From contig JAJFUH010000112.1 in NCBI GenBank assembly GCA_021372535.1, positions 1,034 through 65,033 on the forward strand: 64,000 nt of DNA, in the 5' to 3' direction. The notes under the pieces were generated by a model. It saw only the letters and a list, made by a program, of their open reading frames with translations. It was not told the DNA's origin and did not search any database. This DNA is from a bacterium. Its GTDB lineage: Bacteria > Latescibacterota > Latescibacteria > Latescibacterales > Latescibacteraceae. Made by a program: the position numbers and the translations under genes. Numbering within the stretch: position 1 is the stretch's first letter; every line of letters begins with the position of its first letter. Positions 10,566-29,977 of this stretch are shown here, in pieces.

Positions 10566-10652
10566 CAGAACACGGATTTTCGCGTTTTTATCTTTTTTTG
10601 ATCCGGATGGTTTATTCTTACTGAATGTACTATTAATGGCGATATATTTATA

Positions 10653-10779
10653 CCGGAGTAATTCCGGTGGATGGGCAACAACAGGAGGTTGCCCCAACGT
10701 ACGCGAACGATCATTTCGTCATGAATAATATTCTTTGTGATTTTGTGCCGTCGTGGTGAATTATTTTCATGAATAACCA
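10653..10779 (+). repeat. Leader unit A: hairpins followed by one copy of the conserved intergenic element
   Basis: The first hairpin is CCGGAgtaatTCCGG (10653-10667). The second is GGGCAAC, loop aacaggag, GTTGCCC (10673-10694). The element atttcgtcatgaataatattcTTTGTGatTTTGTGccgtcgTGGTgAAttATTTTCATGAATAAcCA then runs 10713-10779. Confidence 0.6.
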
Positions 10780-10936
10780 TCATGACCATATATGATCACA
10801 TCGAAGGATGAAAACGTAATTTCAGATATAACATATTATTACATGAATTATCTTTCTCCGTGTCTCCTTGGTGAAATTTGTTATGATATTTTCAGATAAA
10901 TCCGGGGCAATGACTGTTCGTGCATGTTTTCTAAAT

Positions 10937-11068: not shown

Positions 11069-11090
11069 TACCAGCAAGGAGGTAATTATA

Positions 11091-12230
11091 ATGTCCGAAC
11101 ATACATCGTTCCACAGTATCTGCCGGTGGACATTCAATCCGGGAAAGGGAGGCTTTGTTCCCGCAGACATGCGGCCAGAATGGGCTTCTGACAAATTCGG
11201 CACGGTGGACATGATTCGCCTTGTCAAAGGCAGAATAAAGCCGCGGCTTCCGGAGTATATCGGGCTCGGCCTGGAGGTTCATTACGACAACGAGATCAAC
11301 GAAAACACCGTGAAGGAAATTTCCGACGCCCTCGTGGATACGGGTATGTACCTTGCCATGATCACACCCGGCGCCCACGGCCACTGGGGATACGGCGGTA
11401 TTGCCTCGCTCGACCCGAAAGAACGGTCGACCGCCGAGGAATTCGGGCAGAGAACGGTAGATCTCGCTTACGGAGTCCTGAAAAAGGCATGGCACCCCGA
11501 GGCGGGTAAAGCGCCCTCGCTCATTCTCTGGAACGGCTCGTTCGGGTATGATTTAGCCACCATCGGCATCCGGTCCATGTACCGTAATCTCAAGGAGAGC
11601 GTAGCGAAACTCTGCGCCTACGAAGCCCGTAAAGGCGGGGAACTGTACATCGGATTCGAGCCCAAACCGAATGAGGGACATCCGGCCATGCTCATTCCCA
11701 CCGTGGCGAGCGCACTCGTTTTCTGGAATCGGCTTGCGGTTGAATATGGCGTCTCCACGGCGAAAAAGGGAGTCAACAAGGAATTCGGTCACTCGGAGAT
11801 GATCGGCCTCGATCATGTGTACGATACGGTCGAGGAGCTCGACAACAATGCGATGGTTCACATGCACCTCAACAGCCAGGGGTATAACGACGGCATCATT
11901 CTCGGCGGACCGGGGAAATTCGACATCGATCACGGCGCCCGTGTGAACGGCATGAATATCGCCATAGCGGGTCTCATACAGGAAGCGGGATTCAACCGCT
12001 GGAAAGGCCATGACATGCAGACACGCGCTTATGACAACACGGAGCAGGGGATCGACCGTGTCATCAGGAGTGTCCTGAGCTGGGAGGCATGCGAACAGAC
12101 TGCCCGTAATCTTGATACGACCGGTCTGCTCCGTTTTCTTTCACAGCGCGAAACCGCGAAAGCCGAGGATATGATGAGAGCCGCCCTTGTCGATGCGCAG
12201 AAATTCTTCGATGAGATGTATGGAGGATAA
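11091..12230 (+). CDS. Xylose-isomerase-like TIM-barrel sugar isomerase (divergent XylA/RhaI-type)
   Basis: FEPKPNEGHP matches the XylA FEPKP motif. ILWNGSFGY corresponds to XylA WGGREG. The start at 11091 has an AAGGAGG RBS. The ORF track start at 11061 lies inside the repeat element. The FGGY kinase is adjacent. Confidence 0.6.
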   Translation: MSEHTSFHSICRWTFNPGKGGFVPADMRPEWASDKFGTVDMIRLVKGRIKPRLPEYIGLGLEVHYDNEINENTVKEISDALVDTGMYLAMITPGAHGHWGYGGIASLDPKERSTAEEFGQRTVDLAYGVLKKAWHPEAGKAPSLILWNGSFGYDLATIGIRSMYRNLKESVAKLCAYEARKGGELYIGFEPKPNEGHPAMLIPTVASALVFWNRLAVEYGVSTAKKGVNKEFGHSEMIGLDHVYDTVEELDNNAMVHMHLNSQGYNDGIILGGPGKFDIDHGARVNGMNIAIAGLIQEAGFNRWKGHDMQTRAYDNTEQGIDRVIRSVLSWEACEQTARNLDTTGLLRFLSQRETAKAEDMMRAALVDAQKFFDEMYGG

Positions 12231-14269: not shown

Positions 14270-14935
14270 ATGTTACGGAAACATAAAAAACTGACGAAAA
14301 AAGAACTCAAGCAGGATCCGCTCGTGATATTTACCGCACAGTTCCTCGATTATATCCAGGGAGAATGGATGAAAATCGGGGGTACAATTCTTGCTGTTTT
14401 ACTTATTATATTTGTTTCGATGTTTATTGTCAAAGGGAAACATGCATCCGAGAACAAGGCCTATGATGCGGCATTGATCGCGCTCCAGACCAATGCTCCC
14501 GAAGCTCCCGATCTTTTGAAAACCGTTGTTGAAAAGCATGGCGGTTCCCAGAGCGCGGCAATGGCATTGATTCAACTGGGCAACATGTATTTTCAGAAGA
14601 AGGATTACGACCAGGCAGAAAAATATTTTACACGGTATATCGATAAATTTTCAGGTGATGTTCTTACCGATTTTAATGCATATAACGGGCTGGGGTCTGT
14701 TCTTGAAGAGAAAAACGAGCCGGCCAAGGCAGCCGCGATATATGAGAAATTTATTTCAAAACATGCTAACAGCCCGTTCACATCCATGATGTGTATTAAT
14801 ACCGCCAAAGCTTTCTGGCTTGCCGGTAATAAAGAACAGGCGAAAACATATTTTTTAAAGGTTGTGGATAATCCTTACGATTCAAATGAAAAGCAGGAAG
14901 CTCAATACTATCTTGAAACCTTGCAGATTCAATGA
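14270..14935 (+). CDS. Membrane-anchored TPR-like protein (YfgM-like architecture)
   Basis: A short cytoplasmic N-terminus, a single TM (IGGTILAVLLIIFVSMFIV), then a TPR-like helical domain. The stop overlaps the start of the radical-SAM gene. Confidence 0.45.
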   Translation: MLRKHKKLTKKELKQDPLVIFTAQFLDYIQGEWMKIGGTILAVLLIIFVSMFIVKGKHASENKAYDAALIALQTNAPEAPDLLKTVVEKHGGSQSAAMALIQLGNMYFQKKDYDQAEKYFTRYIDKFSGDVLTDFNAYNGLGSVLEEKNEPAKAAAIYEKFISKHANSPFTSMMCINTAKAFWLAGNKEQAKTYFLKVVDNPYDSNEKQEAQYYLETLQIQ

Positions 14936-15867
14936 TTAAAGGCTGTGTAATGAATCCGGGATATGTTGATTTATCGGAGCAGGGTATACTTGATAAAAGA
15001 GTCAGCATCCTTGCCGAATATTACAGAGAATGCACGCTGTGTCCTCACATGTGCAAAGCAAACCGAATCAGGAGTAACAAAGGGGTATGCCGGTCCGGGA
15101 GCCATGCCGTCGTCGCCAGCCACAACACGCATAACGGTGAGGAACCGCCCATTAGCGGATATGCAGGTTCGGGAACGATTTTTTTCTCAGGTTGCAGCGG
15201 ACGGTGCCTTTTCTGCCAGAATTATCCCATCAGCCAGCTAAATACCGGAACCCCCGTGAGCGATAAGCGTTTGGCATTCATGATGCTCGATCTCCAGAAG
15301 CGGGGATGCCACAATATCAATCTGGTAACGCCGACACATTTTCTTCCATCCATTGTCCATGCGATTTCAATTGCGGTAAAATCGGGATTGCGGCTCCCGA
15401 TTGTATATAATACAAGCGGATATGAGCGTGTTGAGATTCTGGAACTCCTGAACGGTATCGTCGATATCTATCTTCCGGATTGCAAATATGCCGATGATAA
15501 TGCCGCATCAGTTTTATCCGGTTTCGATGACTATGTCGCCCACAATCGATCGGCGCTCAAAGAAATGTTCAGACAGGTGGGGAATCTTCGCATTGTCAAC
15601 GGCATAGCTACCAAAGGCCTGTTAGTCCGTCACCTGATTCTCCCCGACAACCTGTCGGGCACTGAAACAGTGCTGAAATTTCTTGCCCGGGAAATATCGC
15701 GGAATCTGTATGTCAGCCTTATGGATCAGTATTTTCCCGCATACCGTGCGACGAATCATGCTGTTTTATCACGGCGTATCAATACCGAGGAATATAACGA
15801 GTCACTGGAATTCTTTACTGCATGCGGTCTGCATAACGGCTGGATACAGGAGCATCTGATTAATTGA
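14932..15867 (+). CDS. Radical SAM enzyme, PflX-like (COG1313-type, a homolog of PFL activase)
   Basis: The CSGRCLFCQN CxxxCxxC radical-SAM cluster is present. An additional N-terminal Cys cluster reads CTLCPHMC..GVC. It overlaps the upstream gene by 4 nt. Confidence 0.55.
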   Translation: MIKGCVMNPGYVDLSEQGILDKRVSILAEYYRECTLCPHMCKANRIRSNKGVCRSGSHAVVASHNTHNGEEPPISGYAGSGTIFFSGCSGRCLFCQNYPISQLNTGTPVSDKRLAFMMLDLQKRGCHNINLVTPTHFLPSIVHAISIAVKSGLRLPIVYNTSGYERVEILELLNGIVDIYLPDCKYADDNAASVLSGFDDYVAHNRSALKEMFRQVGNLRIVNGIATKGLLVRHLILPDNLSGTETVLKFLAREISRNLYVSLMDQYFPAYRATNHAVLSRRINTEEYNESLEFFTACGLHNGWIQEHLIN

Positions 15868-16017
15868 GATTTTTTTCAATATTTATATAGAAAACATCGT
15901 TCGTATTGTATATACTTTATACGGAGGCAACAAGGAGGCGATTGAAACACATATTTAAAAATTTATAATCGGTATTTCACATATAATTTTTTGTTTTTTT
16001 AATTTAAGGAGGCGTAC

Positions 16018-16533
16018 ATGGCAGTTGAACAAAAACCACAATTGACTGAAGAAGAAAAAATCGCAAAGAAAGCCAGATTATTTCGTATAATCTCGAATAT
16101 TCTTATCGGTGTAGCAGTAGTTGTTATTACCATTTTTATCATTTTTGCCGTCGGCACAAAAAAGAACATTAATACCCAGACAGCCATGGATACGCAGGAA
16201 CTCAGAAGCAAGCTAAAACAAATTGTAGCGCTCGAGAAAAAATATCATGAAGAACATGGCGAATATGTAAAAATCAACTTTCTTCAATTGAGTAAAGACC
16301 TTCCGATTTTCGATCCAAACCCGATGGGTAACTTCAGATATAAATTCGATCCTGAAACGGCGACTGCAACCGGTATGGAAAAAGACGCATCGAGTGATGT
16401 CAATGGTGATAGCGATGGGAAAGACGGGTTGACTCTCAACGTCAAATGGGAACCGGGCAAGACAGATGGAAGCGATTTCTTCTGGACCGATGAGGATATT
16501 GCGGATTTCCAAAAACGCGCTGCGGAAAAATGA
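16018..16533 (+). CDS. Hypothetical protein with a single N-terminal TM anchor
   Basis: 171 aa with an AAGGAGG RBS. It has a TM helix (ILIGVAVVVITIFIIFAV) and an acidic C-terminus. No family was recognised. Confidence 0.5.
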   Translation: MAVEQKPQLTEEEKIAKKARLFRIISNILIGVAVVVITIFIIFAVGTKKNINTQTAMDTQELRSKLKQIVALEKKYHEEHGEYVKINFLQLSKDLPIFDPNPMGNFRYKFDPETATATGMEKDASSDVNGDSDGKDGLTLNVKWEPGKTDGSDFFWTDEDIADFQKRAAEK

Positions 16534-16558
16534 TGACGATCATCTGTGTGTGATTGGC

Positions 16559-16598
16559 AACGGGGTTTTTTCTCAAGTAAAGAAAAACCCCGTTTTTT
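16559..16598 (+). terminator. Rho-independent terminator
   Basis: AACGGGGTTTTT, loop tctcaagtaaag, AAAAACCCCGTT, then TTTTTT. Confidence 0.7.
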
Positions 16599-16706
16599 AT
16601 TGTTTTTTATCATCAGTCGTTCCTGAAAATTAATGTAATAAATTGTTAATAAAGTAATTGTAATATATTTATTAGGTAGTAAACGCCATGTACATGGAGT
16701 CATTTC

Positions 16707-17288
16707 ATGAACTCATCAGTTCGCATCCATGTATTTCTTTCGCTTTTACTGCTCGCGTTTCTGCTTGCCTGCAGTAATAGTGAAGACAGCCCGATCGGAC
16801 CCGGTGAAGTAAATGTCATTTCCGGCATGACGTTTGTTTCGATCCCTAGCGGGACTTTCCGGATGGGGGATGAGGATGGCTATCTTTCGGATGAGTGTCG
16901 CCCTGTCCATACCGTGACGGTATCGTCATTCGAGATGAGTGTATATGAAGTGACGAACGCCCAGTATGCGTCATACCTGAATGAGGCGCTGTCGTCGGGC
17001 ATTATCAAGGTATCGGAGAATGTTGTCTTGGGCAAAGGTGGTGAGTACGATGATCAGCCGTATATTGACATGTATTATCCGTACGATGCGGACAATACAT
17101 GTTGGATCGGTTATAGTTCCGGCGTATTCGGTGTGTCGAGTGGTAAAGAGAACTGGCCGGTAGTGAACGTGACGTGGTATGGAGCGAAAGCTTTTGCACA
17201 GTACTTAGGTTTTGTGTGTGTCCTGCCCGGGAGTATCGAGGCATCTAATACCCGGTGCAACAGATTTCGTGTAGGGCGGTACTCCTGA
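16707..17288 (+). CDS. Lipoprotein with an FGE-sulfatase (SUMF1-like) domain that appears C-terminally truncated. Possible pseudogene.
   Basis: It has a lipobox (LLACSNS) and the blocks FRMGDEDG..RPVHTVTVSSFEMSVYEVTNAQYASYL and NVTWYGAKAFAQYLG. The ORF ends where the paralogous domain in the STK (47686-50190) continues with RLPTEAEWEYAARGG. The downstream frame has no FGE similarity. Confidence 0.5.
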   Translation: MNSSVRIHVFLSLLLLAFLLACSNSEDSPIGPGEVNVISGMTFVSIPSGTFRMGDEDGYLSDECRPVHTVTVSSFEMSVYEVTNAQYASYLNEALSSGIIKVSENVVLGKGGEYDDQPYIDMYYPYDADNTCWIGYSSGVFGVSSGKENWPVVNVTWYGAKAFAQYLGFVCVLPGSIEASNTRCNRFRVGRYS

Positions 17289-17478
17289 AGGTTGATCTGG
17301 CTGCTAATGCTAAAGACTTTTTCAGGGACAACTCATTAAGATGCAGGACAGATCATTTGCTGAAAGACTTTTATGAGAGAACTGCTGAAATATCTCATAA
17401 TCGCCCTGATAGTCGGGGGAGCGGTTCCGTTGATATTATCATATCTGACCAGAAAACCGCCATCGAAAGGGAAGTAAG

Positions 17479-19296
17479 TCAACGATCCTTTGCGGCTGAT
17501 TTGACCGCTGAAACGAGTTCAGGATTCAACTGAATCCGACGCGCTTCTGCTTCTTTAACATACCTGAGCGCCGCCTCATAATCCCCATCCATGAATGTTG
17601 CCACGGCCAGGTTGTTCAGGATCATATATATATTTCCCTTTTTTTCCATTGCAATTAAAAGATAGTGAATGGCCTCCTTGTACTCCTGCTTGGCAATTTT
17701 GACCGTTCCCAGTTCCTGGAAAGGCAGGGGAGTATTCGGATTGAGCCTGATCGAGGTCTTCAGCTCATCTTCCGCTTCGTTATATCTTCCCAGCTTTTCC
17801 AGTACGGTGCCATAGTCATAACGTGCGCGTGAATTATCCGGACTGAACTGTGCAGCCTGTGCATAGAAGCGTGAAGACTCCTCATAACGTTTTTGATCAT
17901 AGAGGCTTCTTCCGAGACCAAGCAGTGCTCCATCATATTTTGGGTATATTTCAAGAGCCTTTCGGTAATAATCCTCTGGCGTACCCATGTTATCGCGAAA
18001 TCCCGACAGATACCCCATGTTACAGAGCACTTTCGCGCTTTTCGACCCGTTGCGGAGCTCGGCGCCAAACAAACTGAAATCATCGTGCCATTCGCGGTTT
18101 CGGGAAACGGTCCTGTACGCGTAAACGCCTGTAACAAGAATAAAAAGGATGGTGGCGGGATAACGCCATCGCCGTATCAAACGTAAAAATACAAGACCTC
18201 CGCAAAGCGCAATACCAACTGATGGGAGATACATGAGTCGTTCTCCCATGATTGTTCCTATGGGAAAGATAATATTTGAAATAAGCAGATACGGAATAAA
18301 GAAAAAGAGAAAACCGACCAGGTACAGGAGATCATATTTGCGGCAATAAAGGGCAGAAGCCGTACTGCCCACAATGAACAGTAAACCGGTTATGGGAATT
18401 AGGTGAAGCATCGATGTGTAGAGCGGCAGCTGGTTGTATGAATAATCCGCATATAATTTTACGGGAAACACCAGTACGAGAACATACCGTACGAGCACAC
18501 CAAGCGCTGTGGCAATTCTTTCAACCATTGGTGCGACGGCGATGGGATTGTCCACAAATCCTGGTTGGAATCCCAGTAAAACGTTTTTAAGCACCGCCCA
18601 GCGTATAAAAACATAAACGATGACACAGAGAGTCAAAACAGCATATTCGATAATCTTCTTTTTTGTGGTGAACGGTCTTTTAAGAGCAATGTCCAATACA
18701 AGTACCAGTACAGGGAAAACAACCGCGGTTTCCTTTGAAAGGAGCGCGCAAAAAAGAAATAACGCAGCTGCGGCCAATCCGAGTATGCCTTTCATGCTGT
18801 ATTCAATACATAACCACGATAAAAGCATGAAAAATACACAGAGTATTTCCGGTCTGCCGGCATTATTTGCCACAGCTTCGGTATGAACAGGAGCTACAGA
18901 GAAAAGGAGCACACTCAGAAAAGAAAGCGGTATCGAATCCGTCAGAGACTTCAACAGTAAAAAAAGGCATAGCGCGTTACATGCATTGAGCGTAACATTA
19001 ACCGCATGATAATAGAAAGGATTCAGTTTATCGCCGAACTTGTTCAACACGAATGAAAGGACAGTGAGCGGCCGATATAAGCTGTCTCCGGTAAATCCGG
19101 AACCTGCGCGGTAATTGGAGACGAATATATCTTTGAGGGAATAAGAATCGGTGACCATTTTGTTTTCGACAATCAGGCTTTTATCATCAAATGCAAATTT
19201 GCCAACGAGTGTATTTGCATAGATAAGAAAATTGGCGCAGAGAAGAACAATCGATAAGATGATGATATTCTTGGTATTAGCTTTAAAATAGGTCAT
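17479..19296 (-). CDS. Second TMTC/PMT-like GT-C membrane protein with a C-terminal TPR domain (paralog of 662-2599)
   Basis: 605 aa. It has a DD motif (FAFDDKSLI) in the first loop, about 11 TM helices, and C-terminal TPRs (YYRKALEIYPKYDGALLGLG...). Confidence 0.65.
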   Translation of the reverse strand: MTYFKANTKNIIILSIVLLCANFLIYANTLVGKFAFDDKSLIVENKMVTDSYSLKDIFVSNYRAGSGFTGDSLYRPLTVLSFVLNKFGDKLNPFYYHAVNVTLNACNALCLFLLLKSLTDSIPLSFLSVLLFSVAPVHTEAVANNAGRPEILCVFFMLLSWLCIEYSMKGILGLAAAALFLFCALLSKETAVVFPVLVLVLDIALKRPFTTKKKIIEYAVLTLCVIVYVFIRWAVLKNVLLGFQPGFVDNPIAVAPMVERIATALGVLVRYVLVLVFPVKLYADYSYNQLPLYTSMLHLIPITGLLFIVGSTASALYCRKYDLLYLVGFLFFFIPYLLISNIIFPIGTIMGERLMYLPSVGIALCGGLVFLRLIRRWRYPATILFILVTGVYAYRTVSRNREWHDDFSLFGAELRNGSKSAKVLCNMGYLSGFRDNMGTPEDYYRKALEIYPKYDGALLGLGRSLYDQKRYEESSRFYAQAAQFSPDNSRARYDYGTVLEKLGRYNEAEDELKTSIRLNPNTPLPFQELGTVKIAKQEYKEAIHYLLIAMEKKGNIYMILNNLAVATFMDGDYEAALRYVKEAEARRIQLNPELVSAVKSAAKDR

Positions 19297-21271
19297 AAGT
19301 GCCGCCGCAATGTTTACGCATAATATATCTTATGTAAACTTATATATCTGCCGTTAGTATGTATTCCCCGTTTATCGAGCTGTTATGGACACATCCTGTC
19401 CCTGGGCCGTGGAAACGATATTTTCCCTCATATATGTCTTATCCCTCATAGTCATTCAACTGTTCTTTCTATTTGGAGACAAAAAACTTAAACCATCATA
19501 AATAAAGATACCATCGAAAAGTATCGGAATCAAGATTATGATGCTGTACTTTTTTAAAAATGATTCACATAATCATCATCACTTTATCCTCCACCGATTA
19601 CTTCTCAATATCCTTCCGTGTCACGGCATAATACTCACCATCCGGACATTTGTGATTTAAAAGACTTACATTTTGAATGATAACGATAAAAATTAAATGA
19701 TAACATCGTCTCTCATTGACAAAAAATCATTCTCTCTTTATAAGCAAAATAATGTATTTCTAAAAAATCAATAGCGTCATCATAGAGATTTACGGAAATA
19801 ATACGGTTATTATTTTCAATTAGTTTTAAATATCTCTATCAAGAAATTCAACTTCTAATGTGAATGATCTTATGAATTCTGTAACTATCTGAATCCCATA
19901 TGATTAAGAATACTCTGCATTATATTGTACAGTCTCAGACGCTACTATCCAGATTTCCGTCATATGACGTCTTATTTATTGACTTTTTTAAACATAACAT
20001 CGGACAAAATGAATAAACCTCCCCGTACGCTATTGATCTAAGATCGTCATATAATTGACTTATTTGCGTCAGTTAAGCATATATTAAAAGTATTCAATTT
20101 CCAATAGTGTCGTGTTTATGTCGTACGATATTGAAAAAAGTAGCTGAGATACTATTTACATAAATCTCATAAATAACAACAATATTACATTTATTCTATT
20201 GAAAATCACTCAGTCTTAATAATAGCGACATGTCGTAATAAATGCAACAATATATGACGATTGTCGAGTAGTGATAAAACGCCATGTCCCTTTGGTGATA
20301 CAGGGCAATTATCCTCATATTCATGTAAGATACAGAGATCACTTATACCAATATCGTAAGCATATTGATCCGATTATAGCGTCATACGACGCCAACAAAT
20401 ATTACGGATGATTCAAGAGTAATTTTATTTGTAAATGTAAATATATCACCGGTAACGTCGCCTTTGAATACAACCCATTGAATAACACCTGTACCGGATC
20501 GCACTTCAACGAAAATGATTTTACCGCTTTAACAGACATTCGTAACCCTTTCTTTTATACCGACAGCTTCGCCGTCACTTGATGTAATATCTCGAATGCA
20601 ACCATGCGGTATTTGAGAACGATAGTGTTGTCAGACAACCTGTGTTATCGTAAAGTATTATTGTTACCATATTAACGATTAATATATTGTCAGAAAAGGA
20701 GTTATTGCAATGACAGGGAAATTCCTCGCATGTATGAAACAAAATTATAATTCATTATATATATTATAAACAACATACTAATATATCGTGCGTCATATTG
20801 TATCATATATTATATAGCACTAAAATAAATATGATATATAATATAATCATACTACAACAATATTATTCCAAAATTACGAATGTGAAAAACCTTTAGTAAC
20901 GACACGAACTTTCGCTTTAACGCTTCATTGTAACGCATCCGAAAAAAACATAATCAAAATATATTTGTCACTTTATTTATTCTGATATACTTAATGCTCT
21001 ATTTTATAAAACGACATGTCGCAATATCGGCAAAATTACGCTTATGATTTTTCAGTATCAGGGGCAGCGTTCGTCTCTTACGTTTCACCGATACGAAATA
21101 TAAAATAATCCGTTTATTAAGTGGGGCATGGCGAAGCCGAGGGGGATCAATCATATCAGTTGATTTAACTGGATATCCTGATAAAAATTCAAGCTTTTCT
21201 GACGAATAAAAAAAGGAGCGATAAAAAATCTTCGCTCCCCTGCTCCATTATACTGATGTCATACAGTTTAT
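19297..21271. other. ORF-free AT-rich island of about 2 kb
   Basis: No ORF of 60 codons or more in any frame, although the track accepts GTG starts. GC is far below that of the flanking genes. It contains the palindromes cgacatgtcg (twice), cgtcatatgacg and tcgtacga. Confidence 0.5.
21212..21245 (-). terminator. Rho-independent terminator of pnp
   Basis: On the minus strand: GGAGCGA, loop agatttttt, ATCGCTCC, then TTTTTT, 25 nt after the pnp stop. Confidence 0.6.
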
Positions 21272-23362
21272 TTATACGGGTTGTTTTTCCTTGAGAACGG
21301 CCTTACGGCTGCATTTGATTTTTCCCTGGTCATCAATACCGATAACTTTAACTTCGACTACATCTCCAAGGTTAACGATATCTTCGACTTTTTTAACCCG
21401 CTTTTCATCAAGCTCCGAGATATGGACAAGACCTTCCTTTCCGGGAAGGATTTCGACAAAGGCACCAAAAGTAGCGATCCTCTTGACCGTTCCTTTATAG
21501 TTCTTGCCTATTTCCGGATCCTCGACAATTGCAAAAACCATGTCGTATGCAGCCTGACCCGCAGCCATATCGACAGCGGCGATAATTACCGTGCCGTCAT
21601 CTTCGATATTGATCGTTGCGCCGGTCTGCTCCTGGATGCCTTTGATAATTTTGCCTCCGGGTCCGATTACCGCGCCGATCTTATCGACTTTGATTTTCAT
21701 GGTAATGATGCTCGGAGCATATTTTGAAAGACTTTCACGCGGTGCTGAAATCGTCTCGTTCATGATTTTCAGAATATGCTCACGGCCGTCTCGTGCCTGT
21801 GCGAGGGCTTTCGACATGATCTCTGTGGTTATACCGTCGATTTTTATATCCATCTGTATTCCGGTAATACCCACGGAGGTTCCTGCAACCTTGAAATCCA
21901 TATCGCCGAGATGGTCTTCATCCCCGAGAATGTCGGACAATACCACATACCTGTCACCATCGGATATCAGACCCATTGCAATGCCCGCAACAGCGGTTTT
22001 TACCGGTACACCGGCATCCATGAGACATAATGACCCCGAACATACCGTAGCCATGGACGATGATCCGTTTGATTCGAGAATATCGGATACGATCCGTATG
22101 GTGTACGGAAATATCTCTTCCTGTGGAATAACCGGAGCAATCGATGTTTCGGCAAGATGACCGTGCCCGGTCTCACGGCGCGAGGTGCCGCGCATCTGCT
22201 TGACCTCGCCGGTACTGAACGGCAGGAAATTGTAATCGAGCATATAGCTCTTGTAACTGGTTCCTTCAAGATCGTCGATCATTCTTTCATCGAGCTTCGT
22301 GCCCAATGTCAGCACACCGAGAGATTGGGTCTGTCCGCGGGTAAACAGCGCTGAACCGTGTGAGCGGGGTAATACGCCGACTTCGCATGTAATGGGGCGA
22401 ATTTCCGTATATGAGCGTCCATCAAGACGAATCTGGTCATCAAGTATCATGGAACGCATCAACTGTTTTTCGATTTCGCCGAACGCAAGTTTAAGGAGCA
22501 ATTCGCTTTCAGGATATTTCTCGCTGAAGTGCTCCAGCACTTTTTCCTTCAGTTTATCGAGCGCGTTATTACGTTCCGATCTCTCTTTCATTCTGGTTAT
22601 GGTTCGGAATTCTTCGAGAAATTCGTTTTTCATATCGGCGATCATTTCTTCTGTCGGAGCAACCGCCGTATAGTCCATGACAGGAGCGGAAATACCCTCG
22701 ATAAATTCGCGCTGAAGGTCGCAAATCTCTTTTATATACTTCTTTGAAAACTCAATTGCCCCGGCCAGGACTTCTTCGGTAACTTCGAAACAACTGCCTT
22801 CAACCATGAGAATATCGTTATCGGAACCCGCAACAACGATGTTCAGGTCACTTTCCTCAAGCTGCGTATAAGTCGGATTTACGATGTATTCGTTTCCAAT
22901 ATGACCGACATGGACCGCGCCGAGTATCTTCTGAAGCGGTACAGGCGACAGCATGCAGGAGGCAGAAGCTCCAATCAGCCCCAGAACATCGATTTCATTC
23001 TCCTGGTCTGATGACAGCACGGTGACAATAATCTGGATTTCATTGCAGAAACCCTTGGGGAAAAGAGGCCTCAGCGGTCGATCGATCTGACGGGCGCTCA
23101 GAATTTCATTGGTGTTCGGCCGTCCCTCGCGGCGGAAGAAATTTCCGGGAATTTTACCTATGGCATAGGATTTTTCCCTGTATTCCACGGTGAGCGGTAA
23201 AAAATCTTTGTCGCCGCTCGGTTTTTTGTCAACGCATACCGTCGCCAGCAGCATTGACTCCCCATAAGTAACCAGAACAGCGCCGTCTGCCTGTTTGGCT
23301 AAACGTCCTGTTTCCAGTCCGAGGATGTTGTTTCCTATTTGCTTTGTCGTTTTTCTGTACAT
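21272..23362 (-). CDS. pnp: Polynucleotide phosphorylase
   Basis: 696 aa with two RNase PH domains, a KH region (GPGGKIIKGIQEQTG) and an S1 domain (GTVKRIATFGAFVEI). Confidence 0.92.
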   Translation of the reverse strand: MYRKTTKQIGNNILGLETGRLAKQADGAVLVTYGESMLLATVCVDKKPSGDKDFLPLTVEYREKSYAIGKIPGNFFRREGRPNTNEILSARQIDRPLRPLFPKGFCNEIQIIVTVLSSDQENEIDVLGLIGASASCMLSPVPLQKILGAVHVGHIGNEYIVNPTYTQLEESDLNIVVAGSDNDILMVEGSCFEVTEEVLAGAIEFSKKYIKEICDLQREFIEGISAPVMDYTAVAPTEEMIADMKNEFLEEFRTITRMKERSERNNALDKLKEKVLEHFSEKYPESELLLKLAFGEIEKQLMRSMILDDQIRLDGRSYTEIRPITCEVGVLPRSHGSALFTRGQTQSLGVLTLGTKLDERMIDDLEGTSYKSYMLDYNFLPFSTGEVKQMRGTSRRETGHGHLAETSIAPVIPQEEIFPYTIRIVSDILESNGSSSMATVCSGSLCLMDAGVPVKTAVAGIAMGLISDGDRYVVLSDILGDEDHLGDMDFKVAGTSVGITGIQMDIKIDGITTEIMSKALAQARDGREHILKIMNETISAPRESLSKYAPSIITMKIKVDKIGAVIGPGGKIIKGIQEQTGATINIEDDGTVIIAAVDMAAGQAAYDMVFAIVEDPEIGKNYKGTVKRIATFGAFVEILPGKEGLVHISELDEKRVKKVEDIVNLGDVVEVKVIGIDDQGKIKCSRKAVLKEKQPV

Positions 23363-23387
23363 GAATAAATAAACTCCGATTTTTAAA

Positions 23388-23657
23388 TTATTTACGAATG
23401 CTCAGGTCTTTGATAAGCGAACGGTATGAATTGATATCCGTACGCTCGAGATAATCGAGGAGCTGACGTCTCTTTCCGACCAGTTTCATGAGTCCGCGCC
23501 GGGTATGATGGTCTTTTGTGTTGACCTTGAGATGTCCGGTCAGATCATTGATTCGATGAGTCAGAATTGCAATCTGCACTTTTGCATTGCCGGTATCCTG
23601 AGCGGTTTTACCAAATTTTGTCGCATACTCCAGTTTGTGTTCCTTTGTGATTGCCAT
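23388..23657 (-). CDS. rpsO: 30S ribosomal protein S15
   Basis: 89 aa from MAITKEHKLEYATKFGK..., with an AAAGGAGAG RBS. The ORF-track N-terminal extension is unlikely. Confidence 0.9.
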   Translation of the reverse strand: MAITKEHKLEYATKFGKTAQDTGNAKVQIAILTHRINDLTGHLKVNTKDHHTRRGLMKLVGKRRQLLDYLERTDINSYRSLIKDLSIRK

Positions 23658-24609
23658 TTTGTTTTTCTCTCCTTTTGTCATGACAATATATTTTTTTAGT
23701 TGTCTCAATGTCGCTGTTGATTTGCCGTAGAAGGTCCTGCTGATCATTGAATTTTACTATGTTTCTCAGTTTTTGTGTAAACCCTATTCGTATGTCTTTA
23801 CCGTATAAATCACCTTGAAAATCGATGATATGTGTCTCGATGGCGTCACAGTGAATATTGAAGGTCGGTCGGCTCCCCATATTGATAACGGCGGTTTTTC
23901 GTATTCCGTCTATTTCCGCCCAGCCGGCATATGCTCCCTTTCCCGGTAAAATCTTGTCGGAACTCCCGGGCTCGATGTTAGCGGTCGGAATTCCGATTTT
24001 TTTCCCCCGTCCGTCACCCCGGATTACTTTCCCCTGTAATGAATAATCCTCACCGATGAGCTCAGCCGCCTTTTCAACGTTTCCTTTGGCCAGAAGCGTC
24101 CGAATCAATGAGCTTTTAACCGTTAAACCATCAAATTCTACAGAATTAACCGTCCTGAGGGTAAAATTGAGCGCCTCGGCTAATTTCTGAAATGTCTCCG
24201 GTGATTTTTCACTCCGTTTTCCAAACCCGTGATCATATCCTATAAACAATGTATTCATTTTGAGGCGTTTTATCAGATAATCCCTCGTAAACTGTTCAGT
24301 GGTCAGATTGGCAATATCCCGTGTAAATGTCAGTACACAGGTTATATCGATCCCCAGTTTTTCAAACAGAAAAAGTTTTTCTTCCTGCGTTGTCAACAGT
24401 TTCGGCGTGGAATCCGGTTTCAGCACCGACATCGGGTGACGGTCAAAGGTGACGACAAGAGCTTTATCACCGGTCGCCCGTGAGTTTTTGATAAGCTCCT
24501 GCAGGATATACCGGTGCCCGATATGAACCCCGTCGAATGTACCAACAGTTATCGATGTGTTATAGTCCCAGTCCGGTGCTGCATCAAGAATATCTTCCAA
24601 CAGTATCAT
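23608..24609 (-). CDS. ribF: Bifunctional riboflavin kinase / FAD synthetase
   Basis: GTFDGVHIGH (FAD synthetase nucleotidyltransferase motif) and a C-terminal riboflavin kinase domain (GxGRGKKIGIPTAN, PTFN..E.H). The 3' end appears to overlap rpsO by 50 nt. Confidence 0.85.
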   Translation of the reverse strand: MILLEDILDAAPDWDYNTSITVGTFDGVHIGHRYILQELIKNSRATGDKALVVTFDRHPMSVLKPDSTPKLLTTQEEKLFLFEKLGIDITCVLTFTRDIANLTTEQFTRDYLIKRLKMNTLFIGYDHGFGKRSEKSPETFQKLAEALNFTLRTVNSVEFDGLTVKSSLIRTLLAKGNVEKAAELIGEDYSLQGKVIRGDGRGKKIGIPTANIEPGSSDKILPGKGAYAGWAEIDGIRKTAVINMGSRPTFNIHCDAIETHIIDFQGDLYGKDIRIGFTQKLRNIVKFNDQQDLLRQINSDIETTKKIYCHDKRREKQNGNHKGTQTGVCDKIW

Positions 24610-25316
24610 GGTATCTTTGGCATAAGAGGAACAGGCCTGACCAAACGCAGTATTTCGTCACGACCATGAAATTGTGTAATCGCAAGAAAATCAACGGCAT
24701 CATCAATAGTATAACGCCCCGATGCGATTCGCTTCAGCGCCGACAGGTGGGACGGACACCCGGATTTTTCTCCGATTTGATGTGCAATAACCCGGATATA
24801 AGTCCCTTTTGAACACACGATATCGAGCACTATCTTCGGGTAGAGCGACATATCCGTTTGAATCGATTCTATATTGATTGTCCGCGGTTTCCGCTCGACC
24901 GTTTCACCTTTGCGGGCAATCTGATACAGTTTTTTGCCGTTTACTTTTACCGCTGAATACATGGGGGGTATCTGTTCCGATTCGCCCGTAAAACCCGCGA
25001 TGATTTCTGCCAGATTTTTTCGATCGACCTTTTCTGGATTCCCGGTCGCCGTGGTTACACCGTCACAGTCATGGGTATCGGTGGCCAGTCCGAATGTTAT
25101 CTCTGCGCGATATCGTTTCCGGTCATCGGCAAAGAGATATGCGCTTTTTGTTGCCGCACCGATAAGAAGCACAAGAACGCCGGTCGCATTCGGATCAAGA
25201 GTGCCGGTATGTCCTACTTTCACGCCTCCCAGTAAATTACGGGTTTTTTGTACAACATCATGCGAAGTCCAGCCTTGCGGCTTGTCTACAACAAGTATTC
25301 CATTTATATCAATCAC
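24606..25316 (-). CDS. truB: tRNA pseudouridine(55) synthase
   Basis: GILVVDKPQGWTSHDVV and the catalytic Asp block HTGTLDPNATGVL. Confidence 0.88.
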   Translation of the reverse strand: MIDINGILVVDKPQGWTSHDVVQKTRNLLGGVKVGHTGTLDPNATGVLVLLIGAATKSAYLFADDRKRYRAEITFGLATDTHDCDGVTTATGNPEKVDRKNLAEIIAGFTGESEQIPPMYSAVKVNGKKLYQIARKGETVERKPRTINIESIQTDMSLYPKIVLDIVCSKGTYIRVIAHQIGEKSGCPSHLSALKRIASGRYTIDDAVDFLAITQFHGRDEILRLVRPVPLMPKIP

Positions 25317-25663
25317 TGTTTGTTTTTGGCCTGCTCGATAAGTTTATCCATCTTCATTCCGTCTATCAGCGATGAATCATACCGGAATGTCAGCTCGGGA
25401 AGATATTTTAAAATTACCCGTGTTCCGAGAGACATACGGATAAATCCCGCAGCATCGTTAAGGGCATCGAGAGACGACTGTACGGCTTCGGTATCACCGA
25501 GAACGCTCACATATACGTTCGCATGCCTGAGGTCCTTGCTGACATCCACACTCGTTACCGTCACCATTCCGATACGGTGATCTTTCATTTCACGGTCGAT
25601 AATGATGGATACTTCACGGTGAATGAGCTGCGATACTCTGTCGGTTCTGTTAAATCGTTTCAC
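25313..25663 (-). CDS. rbfA: Ribosome-binding factor A
   Basis: 116 aa with RxxRVxxLIxxEVSxII and GMVTVTSVDVSKDLRHANVYVS. Confidence 0.85.
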   Translation of the reverse strand: MKRFNRTDRVSQLIHREVSIIIDREMKDHRIGMVTVTSVDVSKDLRHANVYVSVLGDTEAVQSSLDALNDAAGFIRMSLGTRVILKYLPELTFRYDSSLIDGMKMDKLIEQAKNKQ

Positions 25664-25678
25664 AGGGAACGTCTGCTT

Positions 25679-25960
25679 TCAATAATAATCGATTCGTGAA
25701 TCAATAACCTCGACCCGGTGATCGCCGTATACGAGATCAAGGGCCTTTCTCAGAACACTCTCGGTAAATGTCGCATCGTTCGATACCGCGGCAACACCAA
25801 TGGAAGCCCGCTGCCATTTATCGGTATTATCTACTTCAGCTACCGAAATATTGTACCGGCTCCGCAACCTGTCCTTGATGCTTTTAATGGCAAATCGCTT
25901 CGTTTTCAGGGAGCCGCTTTCCGGTATAAAGAGTTCGATTCGTAAAACGCCGATGACCAC
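25679..25960 (-). CDS. DUF503-family protein (the conserved small gene between infB and rbfA)
   Basis: 93 aa, position conserved in the nusA-infB operon of many phyla. It has the GVLRIELFIPESGSLKTKR-type N-terminus. Confidence 0.7.
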   Translation of the reverse strand: MVIGVLRIELFIPESGSLKTKRFAIKSIKDRLRSRYNISVAEVDNTDKWQRASIGVAAVSNDATFTESVLRKALDLVYGDHRVEVIDSRIDYY

Positions 25961-25974
25961 GGAGCATTATTCCC

Positions 25975-28257
25975 CTATATTTTTCTCGACTCTTCGAGAA
26001 TCTCGATTATCTCGAGGTTATCACCGACCTTAAGGTCATTGTAACCGTCGATGCCGATGCCGCATTCATAACCCTGGGAAACCTCGGACACATCGTCCTT
26101 GAAGCGCTTGAGCGAAGATATGGATCCTTTAAAGATTTCGATACTGTCGCGGATAAGCCGTACTTTTGCATTGCGTTTGATAATCCCGTTGGTAACATAA
26201 CAGCCGGCAATATATCCTACGCGGGGCAGTTTGAATACATCGCGAATTTCCGCGCTTCCCGTAATCTTTTCCGTAATGGTGGGTTTTAAAAGCCCGCTCA
26301 GCGCTTTCCTGACATCATCGATAACCTCATAAATGATCTCATAGAGTTTGATTTCAACATCTTCGCTCTCGGCGAGTGAGCGTGCAGCTGCCGAGGGACG
26401 GACATGGAAACCGATGATGATCGCTCCCGAAGCGGCGGCAAGCAGCACGTCATTTTCGTTGATTCCGCCTACAGCCTGATGAATTACCCTTACACGAACC
26501 TCGGGATGGGAAATCTGTGTAAGCGAATCTGAAAGCGCTTCCATCGATCCATCGACATCCGCCTTGATAATGAGATTGAGCTCACCCATCTCCCCGTCTT
26601 TGATCTTATCATATATATCCGACAGGGTCACACGTTTGAGACGTCTGAAATCCTGCTCGCGTTTCATCATGCGGCGTTTCTGGGCGATGTTTTTTGCCTC
26701 GATTTCGTTGTCGAAGGTATACAATTTATCGCCTGCCCGCGGAACGCCATCCATTCCGAATATCTGGACCGGGATTGATGGGCTGACGCTGGTGAGACGT
26801 TCCCCATACTCGTCGAGCATTGCCCGGACACGGCCGGTAACCATACCGGCAATAAACGGTTCGCCGATCCTCAGGGTGCCGGATTGAATAAGCACTGTTG
26901 CAAGAGGCCCTCTTCCGCGATCGAGCTTCGAGTCTATCACGACACCGGTTGCTCTCTTCGACGCAACGGCTTTCAGCTCGAGCATCTCGGCTTCGAGCAA
27001 TACTTTATCAAGCAGTTTATCGATATTTTTACCTTTTTTCGCCGAAATTTCCTGGCATTGAAATTTTCCGCCCCAATCCTCGACAAGGATATTTTGACGG
27101 GAAAGATCGGACCTGATTTTTTCCGGATCCGCATTTGGCAGATCGATTTTATTGATGGCGATCACAATGGGAACACCGGCCGCCTTTGCATGATCGATTG
27201 CTTCTATCGTCTGCGGCATGACACTGTCATCGGCCGCCACAACGAGAATGACTATGTCGGTAACCTGCGCACCACGGGCGCGCATGGCGGTAAATGCATG
27301 ATGGCCGGGTGTATCGATAAACGTGATCTTCTGCCCGCTGGGAATTATAACGGAGTAAGCGCCAATATGCTGGGTAATCCCTCCGGATTCACCTGCGGCA
27401 ACATTCGATTTCCGTATATAATCGAGCAGCGATGTTTTGCCGTGGTCAACATGACCCATAACCGTAACAACAGGCGGTCTCGGTACTTTCTTGCTTTTCT
27501 TCGATTCCTCGATTTCACGGGCTTTGAGTATATCTTCGGCATATTCCCCGAGCTGTTGAACGACAAAACCGAATTCTTCCGCCAGGAGCTCGATCGTATC
27601 CATATCGATTCGCTGGTTGAGCGAAACCATCATCCCCATCTCCATGCACTTCGAGATGAGCGCGCTCACGGGTATCCCCATTTGCGTCGCAAGCTCGGAA
27701 ATCGATACAAATTCGCTCACCTTTACCGTATTACGGTCTTCCTGGATTTCTTCCTTGGTGGCCTGTTTGGAACGGGGCTTCTTGGATTTTGACCGTGTAT
27801 CGGTGCTCATGCTCGCCATTGTTTTCTTGAAACTGTCCTGTACGGCGGCCATGTCGACTTTTTTACGGCGTTTTCGGGCTTTACGTGATTTCTTTTCCTC
27901 GGTACGCTCTTTTTTCTTTTCAGCTGATTTTTCTGCAGAGGGAGTTTCGGGAGTTTTCTTCTGTTCGGTTTTATGCGGTTTTTTTCTCTTTTTCCTGCGT
28001 CGCGGTGCAACGGGAGCTTCTTCTTCACCTGGTGCTTTTTTCGTTATCGCCTCACTTATTTCCTGCTTCTTCTGGATATCTTTCAATGCAGCATCATGTT
28101 GTTTTTCAAATTGTTTCTTTATATTTTCATACATTTTTTCTTCAATAATACTCATATGGCTCTTTATTTCGAATTTCATATCACGAAGCATCATCATGAG
28201 GGCTTCGGAGGAGATATGAAATTCCTTTGCAACCTGATACACTCGTTTTTTCTCCAT
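25975..28257 (-). CDS. infB: Translation initiation factor IF-2
   Basis: 760 aa. The GTPase G1 motif [12 protein letters not shown] is present, followed by DTPGH and NKID. The middle region is Lys/Glu-rich. Confidence 0.92.
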
Positions 28258-28364
28258 ATTCTCCTCCCAGTATATTTAAAAGGTAATTCTTAACATGTTT
28301 CCGCCGGATTTGTCATGATTACAGCATGGTTTGACTCCGCTCCGGTTCGTAACAGATATCCGGT

Positions 28365-29678
28365 TTATTCTCCGTCTTCTTTCGCGGCTTCAACATTTTT
28401 CATTTTCCCGTCACGATTGACAAAATACTCTTTCGCCAGTGCAATAAGTTTTTCGGCGGTTTTTGGACCCACACCGGGAATCTGAACAATAAAGTTTACA
28501 TCCGCATCCGCGAGATCCCTGACAGTATTGATATTATGACCGTTCAGTTTATAGACCAGTTTTTCTCCGATACCTTTCAAATCGATAAGAAGTCCCGCTG
28601 CCCGTGTCTTGTCGGCTTCGCTCTGGACAAATTCCGACTGGCTGATAATATCCACATTCAAACCAGTCAGGTTACTCGCGAGCTCGGCATTTAAACCGTT
28701 CTTTCCTATCGCAAGGGAAAGCTGATCGTCATTAACGATCGCCGTCAGTTTGCCCTGCGCCCTGTCGATATCGACCCTGAGCACGGGTGCCGGGCTCAGC
28801 GCCCTGGCCAGATACGATGCTATATCATCACTGTACTGGATGATATCGATACGCTCATTGTTCAATTCTTTGACGATTCCCTGGACACGGGACCCTTTGA
28901 TTCCAACACAGGCGCCTACGGCATCGATACGGGGGTCGGATGACATGACTGCGATTTTGGAACGTTCACCCGGCCTGCGCGCTACACCTTTTATTTCGAC
29001 GATCCCTTCATAGATTTCAGGAACCTCTATCTCAAAGAGCCGCGCAAGGAACTTGGGATCGGTACGGGATAAAATAATCTGAGGACCTTTTGCATCCCGT
29101 TTTACATCAATAATCAGCGCCCTGATGGTGTTTCCCTGGTGGTAACGCTCTCTCCGTATCTGATTCTTATGGGGTAGAATCGCTTCCGCTCTGCCCAGGT
29201 TGATATAAATGTCGCCGTGCAAAACCTGTTGAACGGAGCCGGTCACAATTTCATTGATCCGCTGACGGTAATCGTCATAAACCTTATCGCGCTCCGCCTC
29301 GCGAACTTTCTGAATAAGGCTCTGTTTTGCCGAATGTATCGCGTGACGTCCAAAATCCTCGAATTTCAACGGTTCACGGACTTTTGCGCCGATTTTCACT
29401 TTCGGCTGAATCTCGCGTGCCCGTTCGAGGTCAATTTCATTCAACGGATTCTCAACTTCTTTTACAACATTCCATTCTGCTTCCATGGTGATAACTCCCG
29501 TGTTCAAATCGACATCCACGGTAATATTATCGGTATCACCAAAACGTTTTTTGGCAGCACTTAACAGACCGGCCTTTATTGTTTCAACAACCAGTTCGCG
29601 GTTGACATTCTTCTCCCGGGCTATCTGGTTGATGGCCTCAAGAATATCGTATCGTTGAGTTATTCCGGTGTCACTCAT
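28365..29678 (-). CDS. nusA: Transcription termination/antitermination factor NusA
   Basis: 437 aa with an N-terminal domain, S1, two KH regions and a C-terminal HhH. It sits directly upstream of infB. Confidence 0.9.
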   Translation of the reverse strand: MSDTGITQRYDILEAINQIAREKNVNRELVVETIKAGLLSAAKKRFGDTDNITVDVDLNTGVITMEAEWNVVKEVENPLNEIDLERAREIQPKVKIGAKVREPLKFEDFGRHAIHSAKQSLIQKVREAERDKVYDDYRQRINEIVTGSVQQVLHGDIYINLGRAEAILPHKNQIRRERYHQGNTIRALIIDVKRDAKGPQIILSRTDPKFLARLFEIEVPEIYEGIVEIKGVARRPGERSKIAVMSSDPRIDAVGACVGIKGSRVQGIVKELNNERIDIIQYSDDIASYLARALSPAPVLRVDIDRAQGKLTAIVNDDQLSLAIGKNGLNAELASNLTGLNVDIISQSEFVQSEADKTRAAGLLIDLKGIGEKLVYKLNGHNINTVRDLADADVNFIVQIPGVGPKTAEKLIALAKEYFVNRDGKMKNVEAAKEDGE

Positions 29679-29977
29679 ATAATGATCTCCGACTACCTGT
29701 TTTTTTGCAAAACAGTAATTTATTAACCAGATTCACAACAGAAAATGAAGTATATAATTAAAAGAGTGAGCCACCGATACAGCCCACTCTGCCCTAGAAA
29801 ATATAATATATATCATTTAAGTAATGATATGCAACGATTTTTTGCTAAATTCTGGAAAATATTCTTTATATGTCATCAGTTGGAACTATAAACCGTTATA
29901 TCTTTTGTTCATGTCTCCCCGATAAATCATGCAGTGAAATTTTCAGAGAGCAGTCTTCATTATGCTTTTGCGGTATA

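Follow-up and report, generated by a model that had tools for sequence, protein, structure and literature searches.

We analyzed the interval between pnp and a gene for a TMTC-like protein in a 64-kb stretch of bacterial DNA (the window, meaning here the whole stretch that was analyzed). Our own scan for open reading frames (ORFs) and the existing ORF list agreed that positions 19297-21271 (1975 bp) form the longest stretch of the window without an ORF of at least 60 codons; the runner-up, at 58826-59835, is 1010 bp. The ORF-free island of the original prediction was thus recovered to the base pair, and its description as AT-rich amid GC-richer coding flanks also held, since its GC content is 0.324 (0.27-0.37 in 400-bp windows) compared to 0.44-0.55 in the genes of the window and 0.44-0.53 in those flanking the island. 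The two neighbors, both encoded on the minus strand, are pnp (21272-23362), the last gene of a nusA-infB-rbfA-truB-ribF-rpsO-pnp block, and the gene for the TMTC-like protein (17479-19296), a 605-aa TPR/TMTC_DUF1736 protein. The island is a composite and not one functional unit, made up of a native pseudogene and AT-drifting intergenic DNA, with a dif-like site at its edge. Read along the minus strand, the order is pnp, its terminator, a 0.6-kb spacer, the old asnS leader, the dead asnS gene, a 28-bp dif-like site, 16 nt (19297-19312), and the TMTC-like gene.

The identity of the dead gene emerged from related genomes, whose loci (numbered with the prefix L) were collected by pnp similarity. 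In the second-closest, L002, whose pnp is 68% identical, this gene has downstream of it a terminator, a spacer of ~1.08 kb at 26% GC, and a 431-aa ORF. This ORF is an asparagine--tRNA ligase (AsnRS) equivalog, scoring 555.6 bits with model NF003037 (cut-off 414), which outscores the AspRS and LysRS models. The original prediction had suggested a search for pseudogene remnants. When the intact L002 AsnRS was compared to the window with tblastn, there was a single significant match, at 20564-19386 on the minus strand (E = 3e-18), spanning residues 17-431. With the L001 orthologue, the E value was 1e-20 and the match extended from 20606.

The conceptual translation of this relic has NF003037 (TIGR00457) as its best match (E = 3.7e-12), at 45.9 bits against the cut-off of 414, and matches the Pfam OB-fold family PF01336 at 28.4 bits, above the gathering score. 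There are 23 in-frame stops in frame -3 of the relic. A hidden Markov model (HMM) built from three intact orthologues matched residues 4-85, 83-135, 157-283, and 180-431 as collinear segments distributed over all three frames, indicating that the relic is full-length but frameshifted. Its initial 31 codons align without gaps with the orthologues, the start codon is ATA where relatives have ATG, and the GGAGG-type Shine-Dalgarno sequence of the relatives is lost. Because of the stops, the frameshifts, the ATG-to-ATA change, and the score below cut-off, we classed the relic as a pseudogene rather than a gene. Thus, ~1.23 kb of the island (19386-20612, minus strand; 1227 bp compared to 1296 bp for the intact gene) is a degraded native asnS at its conserved syntenic position.

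We measured decay on 546 nucleotide columns that are invariant across six intact asnS orthologues. The relic keeps 75.8% of these columns, corresponding to ~0.29 substitutions per site. The changes comprise 69 from G/C to A/T and 27 in the opposite direction, giving per-site rates of 0.30 and 0.094, respectively, a difference of ~3-fold that implies an equilibrium GC near 24%. GC content is flat across codon positions in the relic (0.35/0.35/0.29), in contrast to live genes (0.55/0.38/0.54). Retention of the ancestral base is roughly even along the relic, ranging from 0.64 to 0.82 across 150-nt bins so that no block stands out as protected, and 95% of the original length is kept despite the accumulated substitutions. 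These data show that the relic decays neutrally under AT-biased mutation, and such mutation after selection on asnS ceased explains both the AT-richness and the lack of ORFs. Once selection had stopped, the bias carried the composition of the relic to the intergenic level. The relic also offers a direct estimate of the mutational bias of its lineage.

Bacterial pseudogenes that decay under AT-biased mutation are familiar from Mycobacterium leprae, Rickettsia, and Sodalis-type genomes. The asnS relic resembles them in the loss of its start, its many stops and frameshifts, its erased codon periodicity, its intergenic-level composition, and the position it has kept relative to intact orthologues. 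It differs in its setting, as the window bears no sign of genome-wide reduction and is otherwise densely coding; its one other long AT-rich gap is 1.0 kb, and the relic has kept nearly all of its length.

The same neighborhood was found in 11 distinct genomes. As far as the contigs reach, pnp is followed by either an M16 peptidase gene or a spacer, then by asnS, the dif-like site, and the TMTC-like gene; beyond these lie a 171-aa gene, a radical SAM gene, and a TPR gene, all three in the opposite orientation, and glnA. The nearest homologues of the TMTC-like protein are ~50% identical, and those with names belong to Candidatus Latescibacter or Latescibacterota. Look-ups of the exact pnp and TMTC-like protein sequences gave no entries, and a metagenome scan with the TMTC-like protein returned no relative above 46% identity.

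In four of the 11 genomes, asnS is dead. The window contains an old relic that decayed in place. In L164 (GCA_037975375.1, 7642-10000), frameshifted N-terminal fragments remain, a DDE transposase (insertion sequence) has inserted, and the C-terminal half is lost. In L169 (GCA_042564065.1, 7505-10000), pieces of asnS lie in three frames within a 2.5-kb gap between pnp and the TMTC-like gene that is annotated as gene-free, like that of the window. L170 (GCA_042564035.1, 1-1516) also has asnS pieces in three frames, with break points that differ from those of L169. As the neighboring genes are intact in these assemblies, general assembly error is unlikely. In a neighbor-joining tree of the TMTC-like proteins, three of the four genomes with dead copies group with genomes in which asnS is intact, and L170 stands alone on a deep branch. 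The differing lesions, together with this tree, indicate that at least four independent inactivations of asnS took place among the 11 genomes.

Loss of asnS has a known precedent. Several bacteria combine AsnRS with an indirect route to Asn-tRNA(Asn), in which a non-discriminating AspRS acts together with GatCAB (PMC4206432, PMC3367201, PMC2811023), and the documented lineages with both routes provide a known reason for asnS to be dispensable. What differs here is the repeated and recent loss of asnS in one lineage, at various stages of decay. By analogy, asnS may be dispensable in these genomes through a non-discriminating AspRS and GatCAB, or another asnS copy may reside elsewhere. The four independent inactivations lead us to predict reliance on, or fallback to, tRNA-dependent transamidation for Asn-tRNA.

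We also noted features of the genes beyond the TMTC-like gene. The 171-aa gene, which is convergent with the TMTC-like gene, has no Pfam match; its protein shows 54-65% identity across the lineage, and the window copy (16018-16533, plus strand) is intact. A candidate "split 163-aa gene" at 16.3-17.4 kb was discarded, as the query, an L001 ORF at 11078-11569 (plus strand), proved to be a spurious antisense ORF over the 171-aa gene. In the window only, a 193-aa ORF (16707-17288, plus strand) lies between the 171-aa gene and the TMTC-like gene, which are adjacent in relatives. It has a signal-peptide-like N terminus, covers only the first ~110 of 255 FGE-sulfatase positions, and shares 32% identity with the C-terminal domain of an 834-aa kinase-FGE protein encoded at 47686-50190. 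The ORF is possibly a truncated duplicate.

A 28-bp site (19313-19340, plus strand) occupies part of the interval between the relic, which ends at 19386, and the start of the TMTC-like gene (19296). It is composed of TTTACGCATAA (XerC-type arm), TATATC (central 6 bp), and TTATGTAAACT (XerD-type arm). For comparison, we used the dif sites at which XerCD resolve chromosome dimers (PMC3025954, PMC5357621). The site has the 11+6+11 architecture of dif, and positions 7-12 pair with positions 17-22 at five of six positions; Kono et al. (2011) specify more than four (PMC3025954). It is identical at 21 of 28 positions to the E. coli dif GGTGCGCATAATGTATATTATGTTAAAT and at 21 of 28 to the B. subtilis dif ACTTCCTAGAATATATATTATGTAAACT, both of which are experimentally established (printed in PMC3025954) and match each other at 19 of 28. 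The right arm of the B. subtilis site is identical to TTATGTAAACT.

Even with three mismatches allowed, the 28-mer occurs once in the window (0 copies expected by chance), and there is one per related locus. The core CATAA-N6-TTATGTAAA is found nowhere but at these sites in 2.3 Mb of sequence (the window and 160 loci). A syntenic site just 3′ of asnS is present in the window, L001, L002, L081, L082/L166, L161, L162, L164, L168, L169, and L170, at a distance from the start of the TMTC-like gene that for most relatives is 36-138 bp and for L161 is 636 bp. Across all 11 genomes TTATGTAAAC is invariant and the inner left arm, CGCATAA, is nearly so, while the outer 4 nt of the left arm and the central 6 bp vary and the surrounding DNA is unalignable. 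We write the lineage pattern as NNTNCGCATAA-N6-TTATGTAAAC. Greater conservation of the XerD-binding arm than of the XerC-binding arm is the general pattern among dif sites (PMC3025954). The site is the clearly constrained piece of the island. It is kept where asnS is dead (the window, L164, L169, and L170) and where the TMTC-like gene is absent (L002), indicating that it is tied to neither gene.

These features suggest that the 28-mer is likely the dif site of the chromosome, at the replication terminus, and a putative site of XerCD dimer resolution; XerC/XerD-type recombinases would resolve chromosome dimers there. It shares with the E. coli and B. subtilis sites its 28-bp length, two 11-bp arms, partial dyad symmetry, 6-bp center, location at a shift point of GC skew, presence as a single copy in the sequence examined, and better conserved XerD-type arm. 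Unlike those sites, it is a predicted site, and the relatives nearest to it that carry names fall in Latescibacterota, an uncultured candidate phylum; a limited literature search turned up no paper mentioning dif in that phylum. A further difference is that it keeps the same neighbors, asnS on one side and the TMTC-like gene on the other, although the TMTC-like proteins of the 11 site-bearing genomes are only 32-74% identical.

The original prediction, which had missed this site, had also suggested computing GC skew. We assessed skew locally, on the window and on the contigs of relatives. At 1-bp resolution, the cumulative GC skew of the window peaks at 19301, with the site 12 bp away. In relatives, an offset of 21-197 bp between maximum and site was measured in L001, L002, L081, L161, L162, and L168. 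The L164/L165 and L166/L082 genomes are each represented by two contigs, one of which falls in this range. The remaining offsets are 305 bp (L169), 555 bp (L164), ~1 kb (L166), and 2.2 kb (L170). As controls, we used 58 unrelated loci of at least 20 kb, in which the skew maximum was never less than 600 bp from the reference gene boundary. When 10-kb flanks were measured in five genomes, skew was positive to the left of the site and negative to the right in all five, including L001, in which the genes adjacent to the site share one direction.

Two other gradients were seen around the site. GC content at third codon positions is 0.44-0.52 in genes within ~10 kb of the site (14270-31030) and 0.57-0.69 in the rest of the window, an AT enrichment toward the putative terminus. 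In 122 kb comprising the window, L001, L002, L081, and L082, purine-rich words are strongly polarized toward the site from both sides (56:9 for GGAAAAA), and a search of the same sequence for KOPS-like polar motifs gave no clean octamer. As the polarity of the purine-rich words is confounded by gene orientation, we did not use it as evidence.

At the other end of the island is an intrinsic terminator of pnp (21249-21205, minus strand), in which GGAGCAGGGGAGCGAAGAUUUUUUAUCGCUCC is followed by a U-run. Its folding energy is -20.1 kcal/mol (z = -3.2), and none of 200 shuffled sequences was as stable. L002 has a terminator at the same spot after pnp (-25.1 kcal/mol, z = -6.3), and L161 gave a blastn match there. 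A consensus terminator scanner did not pick up 21249-21205, probably because simple stem-loop criteria do not fit its interrupted stem.

The AT-rich spacer between this terminator and the former asnS start (20641-21204, minus strand; ~0.6 kb, GC 0.305-0.308) shows no coding relic or known RNA; Pfam searches of all six frames and Rfam searches were both empty. The original prediction had also proposed looking for conservation across related genomes; blastn and tblastx comparisons of the spacer with all loci matched only the pnp terminator and a short element in the asnS leader. In L001, L162, L164, and L168, an M16 peptidase gene lies between pnp and asnS and there is no spacer. The M16 gene is missing from L002 (spacer at 9740-10822), L081 (4017-5343), L161 (6213-7995), L166 (7437-8583), and L169, which instead have a spacer of 1.1-1.8 kb at 18-28% GC. 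The AT-rich spacers may be older fossils of the M16 gene. An M16 HMM built from 46 sequences performed no better on the six-frame translations of the spacers of the window, L002, L081, L161, and L166 than on shuffled sequences, and the same was true for the forward frames of the L169 spacer. The k-mer AAAACGACA is common to three spacers, but its positions and orientations are inconsistent.

Taken together, the data make it highly probable that the island consists of a dead native asnS, an AT-rich spacer, and a dif site between two live genes, and that most of it is neutral. A gene that formerly stood between pnp and the TMTC-like gene would have died, and the island would be what is left of it. 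Several observations weigh against this reading. A pseudogene and a dif site leave the 0.6-kb spacer unaccounted for, and they offer no explanation for the CGTCATA and CGACATGTCG repeats described below. None of XerC, XerD, and FtsK is among the annotated ORFs of the 64-kb window, and neither gatCAB, aspS, nor a second asnS was found there. In L166 and L170, skew peaks 1-2.2 kb away from the site, and the skew switch is partly confounded by gene orientation. In L001, L162, and L168, the genes immediately beside the site (pnp to the TMTC-like gene) all point the same way.

One further element bears on whether the relic has kept a function. The palindromic 14-nt sequence GGTTGTCTGACAAC (20640-20627, minus strand) corresponds to an element located 14-17 nt 5′ of the asnS start codon in relatives, immediately ahead of the Shine-Dalgarno sequence. 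The form GTTGTC-N-GACAAC occurs three times in the 2.3 Mb, once each in the window, L002, and L081 and always directly before asnS, and the looser G[TA]TGT[CA]WGACAAC precedes asnS in L001, L002, L081, L161, L162, L166, L168, L169, and L170. This conservation covers all relatives in which the asnS start region is in the sequence. The right half of the element is invariant, and the left half varies (GTTGTC, GATGTC, or GATGTA) without compensation in the right half. We considered and rejected an RNA hairpin, as there are no compensatory changes and the palindrome is not in the minimum-energy fold of the window sequence. Since the left-half changes are uncompensated, a protein operator fits better. 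From its pattern of conservation, the element is likely an operator, half-site, or leader element of asnS that is kept as a relic in the window.

One possibility is that the relic has been retained because it now serves the TMTC-like gene as an extended transcribed leader or as its promoter region, with transcription passing through dif; the island would then be a functional regulatory region rather than simply neutral. This is compatible with an origin as a pseudogene, and we consider it rather unlikely. The dif-like site ends 16 nt short of the ATG of the TMTC-like gene, which places the promoter farther upstream, either upstream of the site and inside the pseudogene or at the old asnS promoter, so that the TMTC-like promoter would lie within or upstream of the relic. 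In relatives, asnS and the TMTC-like gene are co-oriented, and the interval that separates them, mostly 120-280 bp (~710 bp in L161), contains no obvious terminator; the two may be co-transcribed. The leader element is intact although the adjoining Shine-Dalgarno sequence and start codon have decayed, and 95% of the relic has escaped deletion after ~0.29 substitutions per site. However, at 76% retention per site, survival of the leader element by chance is only marginally unlikely (p ~0.03). Ancestral bases are retained roughly uniformly along the relic with no protected block, and promoter-like matches are not above the number in shuffled sequences (18 compared to 13.4 ± 3.8).

If the 28-mer is not dif, it could be a gene-regulatory operator, an attachment site of a mobile element, or an element of the asnS-TMTC pair that resembles a terminator. 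A partial palindrome directly upstream of the TMTC-like gene in most genomes could suit such a role, and Xer genes were not seen in the window. We nevertheless regard this as improbable. The site persists without the TMTC-like gene in L002 and beside a dead asnS in four genomes; its asymmetry and its conservation, including the CGCATAA inner arm, are dif-like, and the invariant TTATGTAAAC arm is identical to the XerD arm of B. subtilis. Moreover, the skew maximum coincides with the site in independent genomes, and the window holds neither a second copy nor flanking mobile-element genes.

The original prediction had drawn attention to palindromes that look like protein-binding sites and to a recurring (g)cgtcat motif, and had raised the possibility of one or more non-coding RNAs. 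The palindrome CGACATGTCG is present at 20226-20235 and 21012-21021, exactly where it had been placed. CGTCATATGACG and TCGTACGA are also present, at slightly different positions, 19958-19969 (not 19955-19966) and 20121-20128 (not 20123-20130), respectively. Compared to dinucleotide shuffles, the island contains 14 exact palindromic 8-mers (14.9 in shuffles), seven 10-mers (4.4), and one 12-mer (1.3), and 46 of 300 shuffles reach seven palindromic 10-mers. Thus, the total count is not above that of shuffles, and the cited palindromes are not conserved in relatives, which leaves the nucleoid-protein-bound regulatory island of the original prediction unsupported. The motif CGTCAT does recur, with seven copies compared to 1.3 expected, a number reached by one of 300 shuffles; the motif was picked after the fact from thousands of possible k-mers.

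These repeats could signify that the island holds unrecognized non-coding RNAs or arrays of binding sites for, as an example, a nucleoid-associated or terminus-organizing protein. Six of the 12 copies of CGTCATA in 64 kb are in the island (19958, 19963, 20045, 20253, 20380, and 20791), CGACATGTCG occurs there twice, as in none of 300 shuffles, and the island adjoins the putative terminus. We judge this to be very improbable. Five of the six CGTCATA copies are within the decaying pseudogene, a related CGTCATC copy is a relic of a conserved Y-D-D-A codon run, and no such cluster was seen in relatives. In addition, the palindrome total equals chance and the motifs were chosen after the fact.

RNA searches gave the same picture. 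The whole window had no match in Rfam 15 at the gathering threshold; at E ≤ 5, the island itself had none, and the only two hits were weak matches to eukaryotic families just outside it, in the flanking genes. In the homologous regions of L081 and L002, Rfam returned only weak sub-threshold matches at terminator-like hairpins. The island was not recognized by any of the known structured RNA families, including T-box and other leaders, and ARAGORN found no tRNA or tmRNA. With conservation limited to two short elements, the suggestion of non-coding RNAs found no support.

The original prediction had also allowed for a heavily degraded, horizontally acquired segment. The degradation is real, in the form of the dead asnS, but acquisition from outside is scarcely credible: although GC is low compared to the flanking genes, the relic is the orthologue expected at this syntenic position, its composition is that of native intergenic DNA, and the island contains no integrase, transposase, tRNA, or flanking direct repeats. 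The GC content of the island is inside the 0.28-0.40 range of the other intergenic stretches of the window. The dinucleotide comparison proposed in the original prediction gives a distance of 95 between the island and other intergenic DNA, which does not exceed the distance separating intergenic samples among themselves (100). A composition matching that of other intergenic DNA had been named there as one mark of a neutral spacer, and the island has that composition, as native, unconstrained DNA would.

The region gains two annotations, a pseudogene and a dif site, and the analysis removes a false lead, as the island appears to be neither a novel RNA locus nor a foreign island. The dif site also indicates where replication probably terminates in a bacterium whose closest named relatives form a candidate phylum without cultured members. 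The conserved order asnS-dif-TMTC could serve as an anchor for orienting assemblies of the lineage and for locating their termini. What goes beyond routine annotation is the placement of dif and the terminus among conserved neighbors in an uncultured phylum, together with the repeated loss of the adjacent asnS.

We propose, tentatively, that a lineage (probably Latescibacterota) is repeatedly discarding direct charging of Asn-tRNA, that the dif-side terminus preserves asnS fossils for very long, and that the M16-sized spacers are perhaps older fossils; as a whole this is possible rather than probable. Fossils might persist because deletions near dif and the downstream promoter are selected against, or because deletion bias is unusually weak in the lineage. 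If the proposal is true, the lineage would supply a natural series of pseudogenes of different ages from which to derive neutral mutation spectra in an uncultured phylum, and proximity to the terminus may be linked with gene decay.

Two other loci in the window drew our attention. The second AT-rich ORF-free gap, 58826-59835 (GC 0.285), extends to the start of dapA at 60042 and lies between the divergent cheZ-like gene (58022-58825, minus strand) and dapA (60042-60923, plus strand). Within this interval, GC-rich sequence at 59750-59880 folds as a multi-stem junction (-41 kcal/mol, z = -2.4) and has no Rfam match; a dapA leader or riboswitch is one possibility. The second locus, at 39117-40892 on the minus strand, encodes a 591-aa protein with an AEP-TOTE domain (archaeo-eukaryotic primase-like, found in conflict systems) and two CheW-like stretches. 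It adjoins genes for a ParA/MinD-type ATPase and type II/IV secretion, and the pairing of its domains is unusual.

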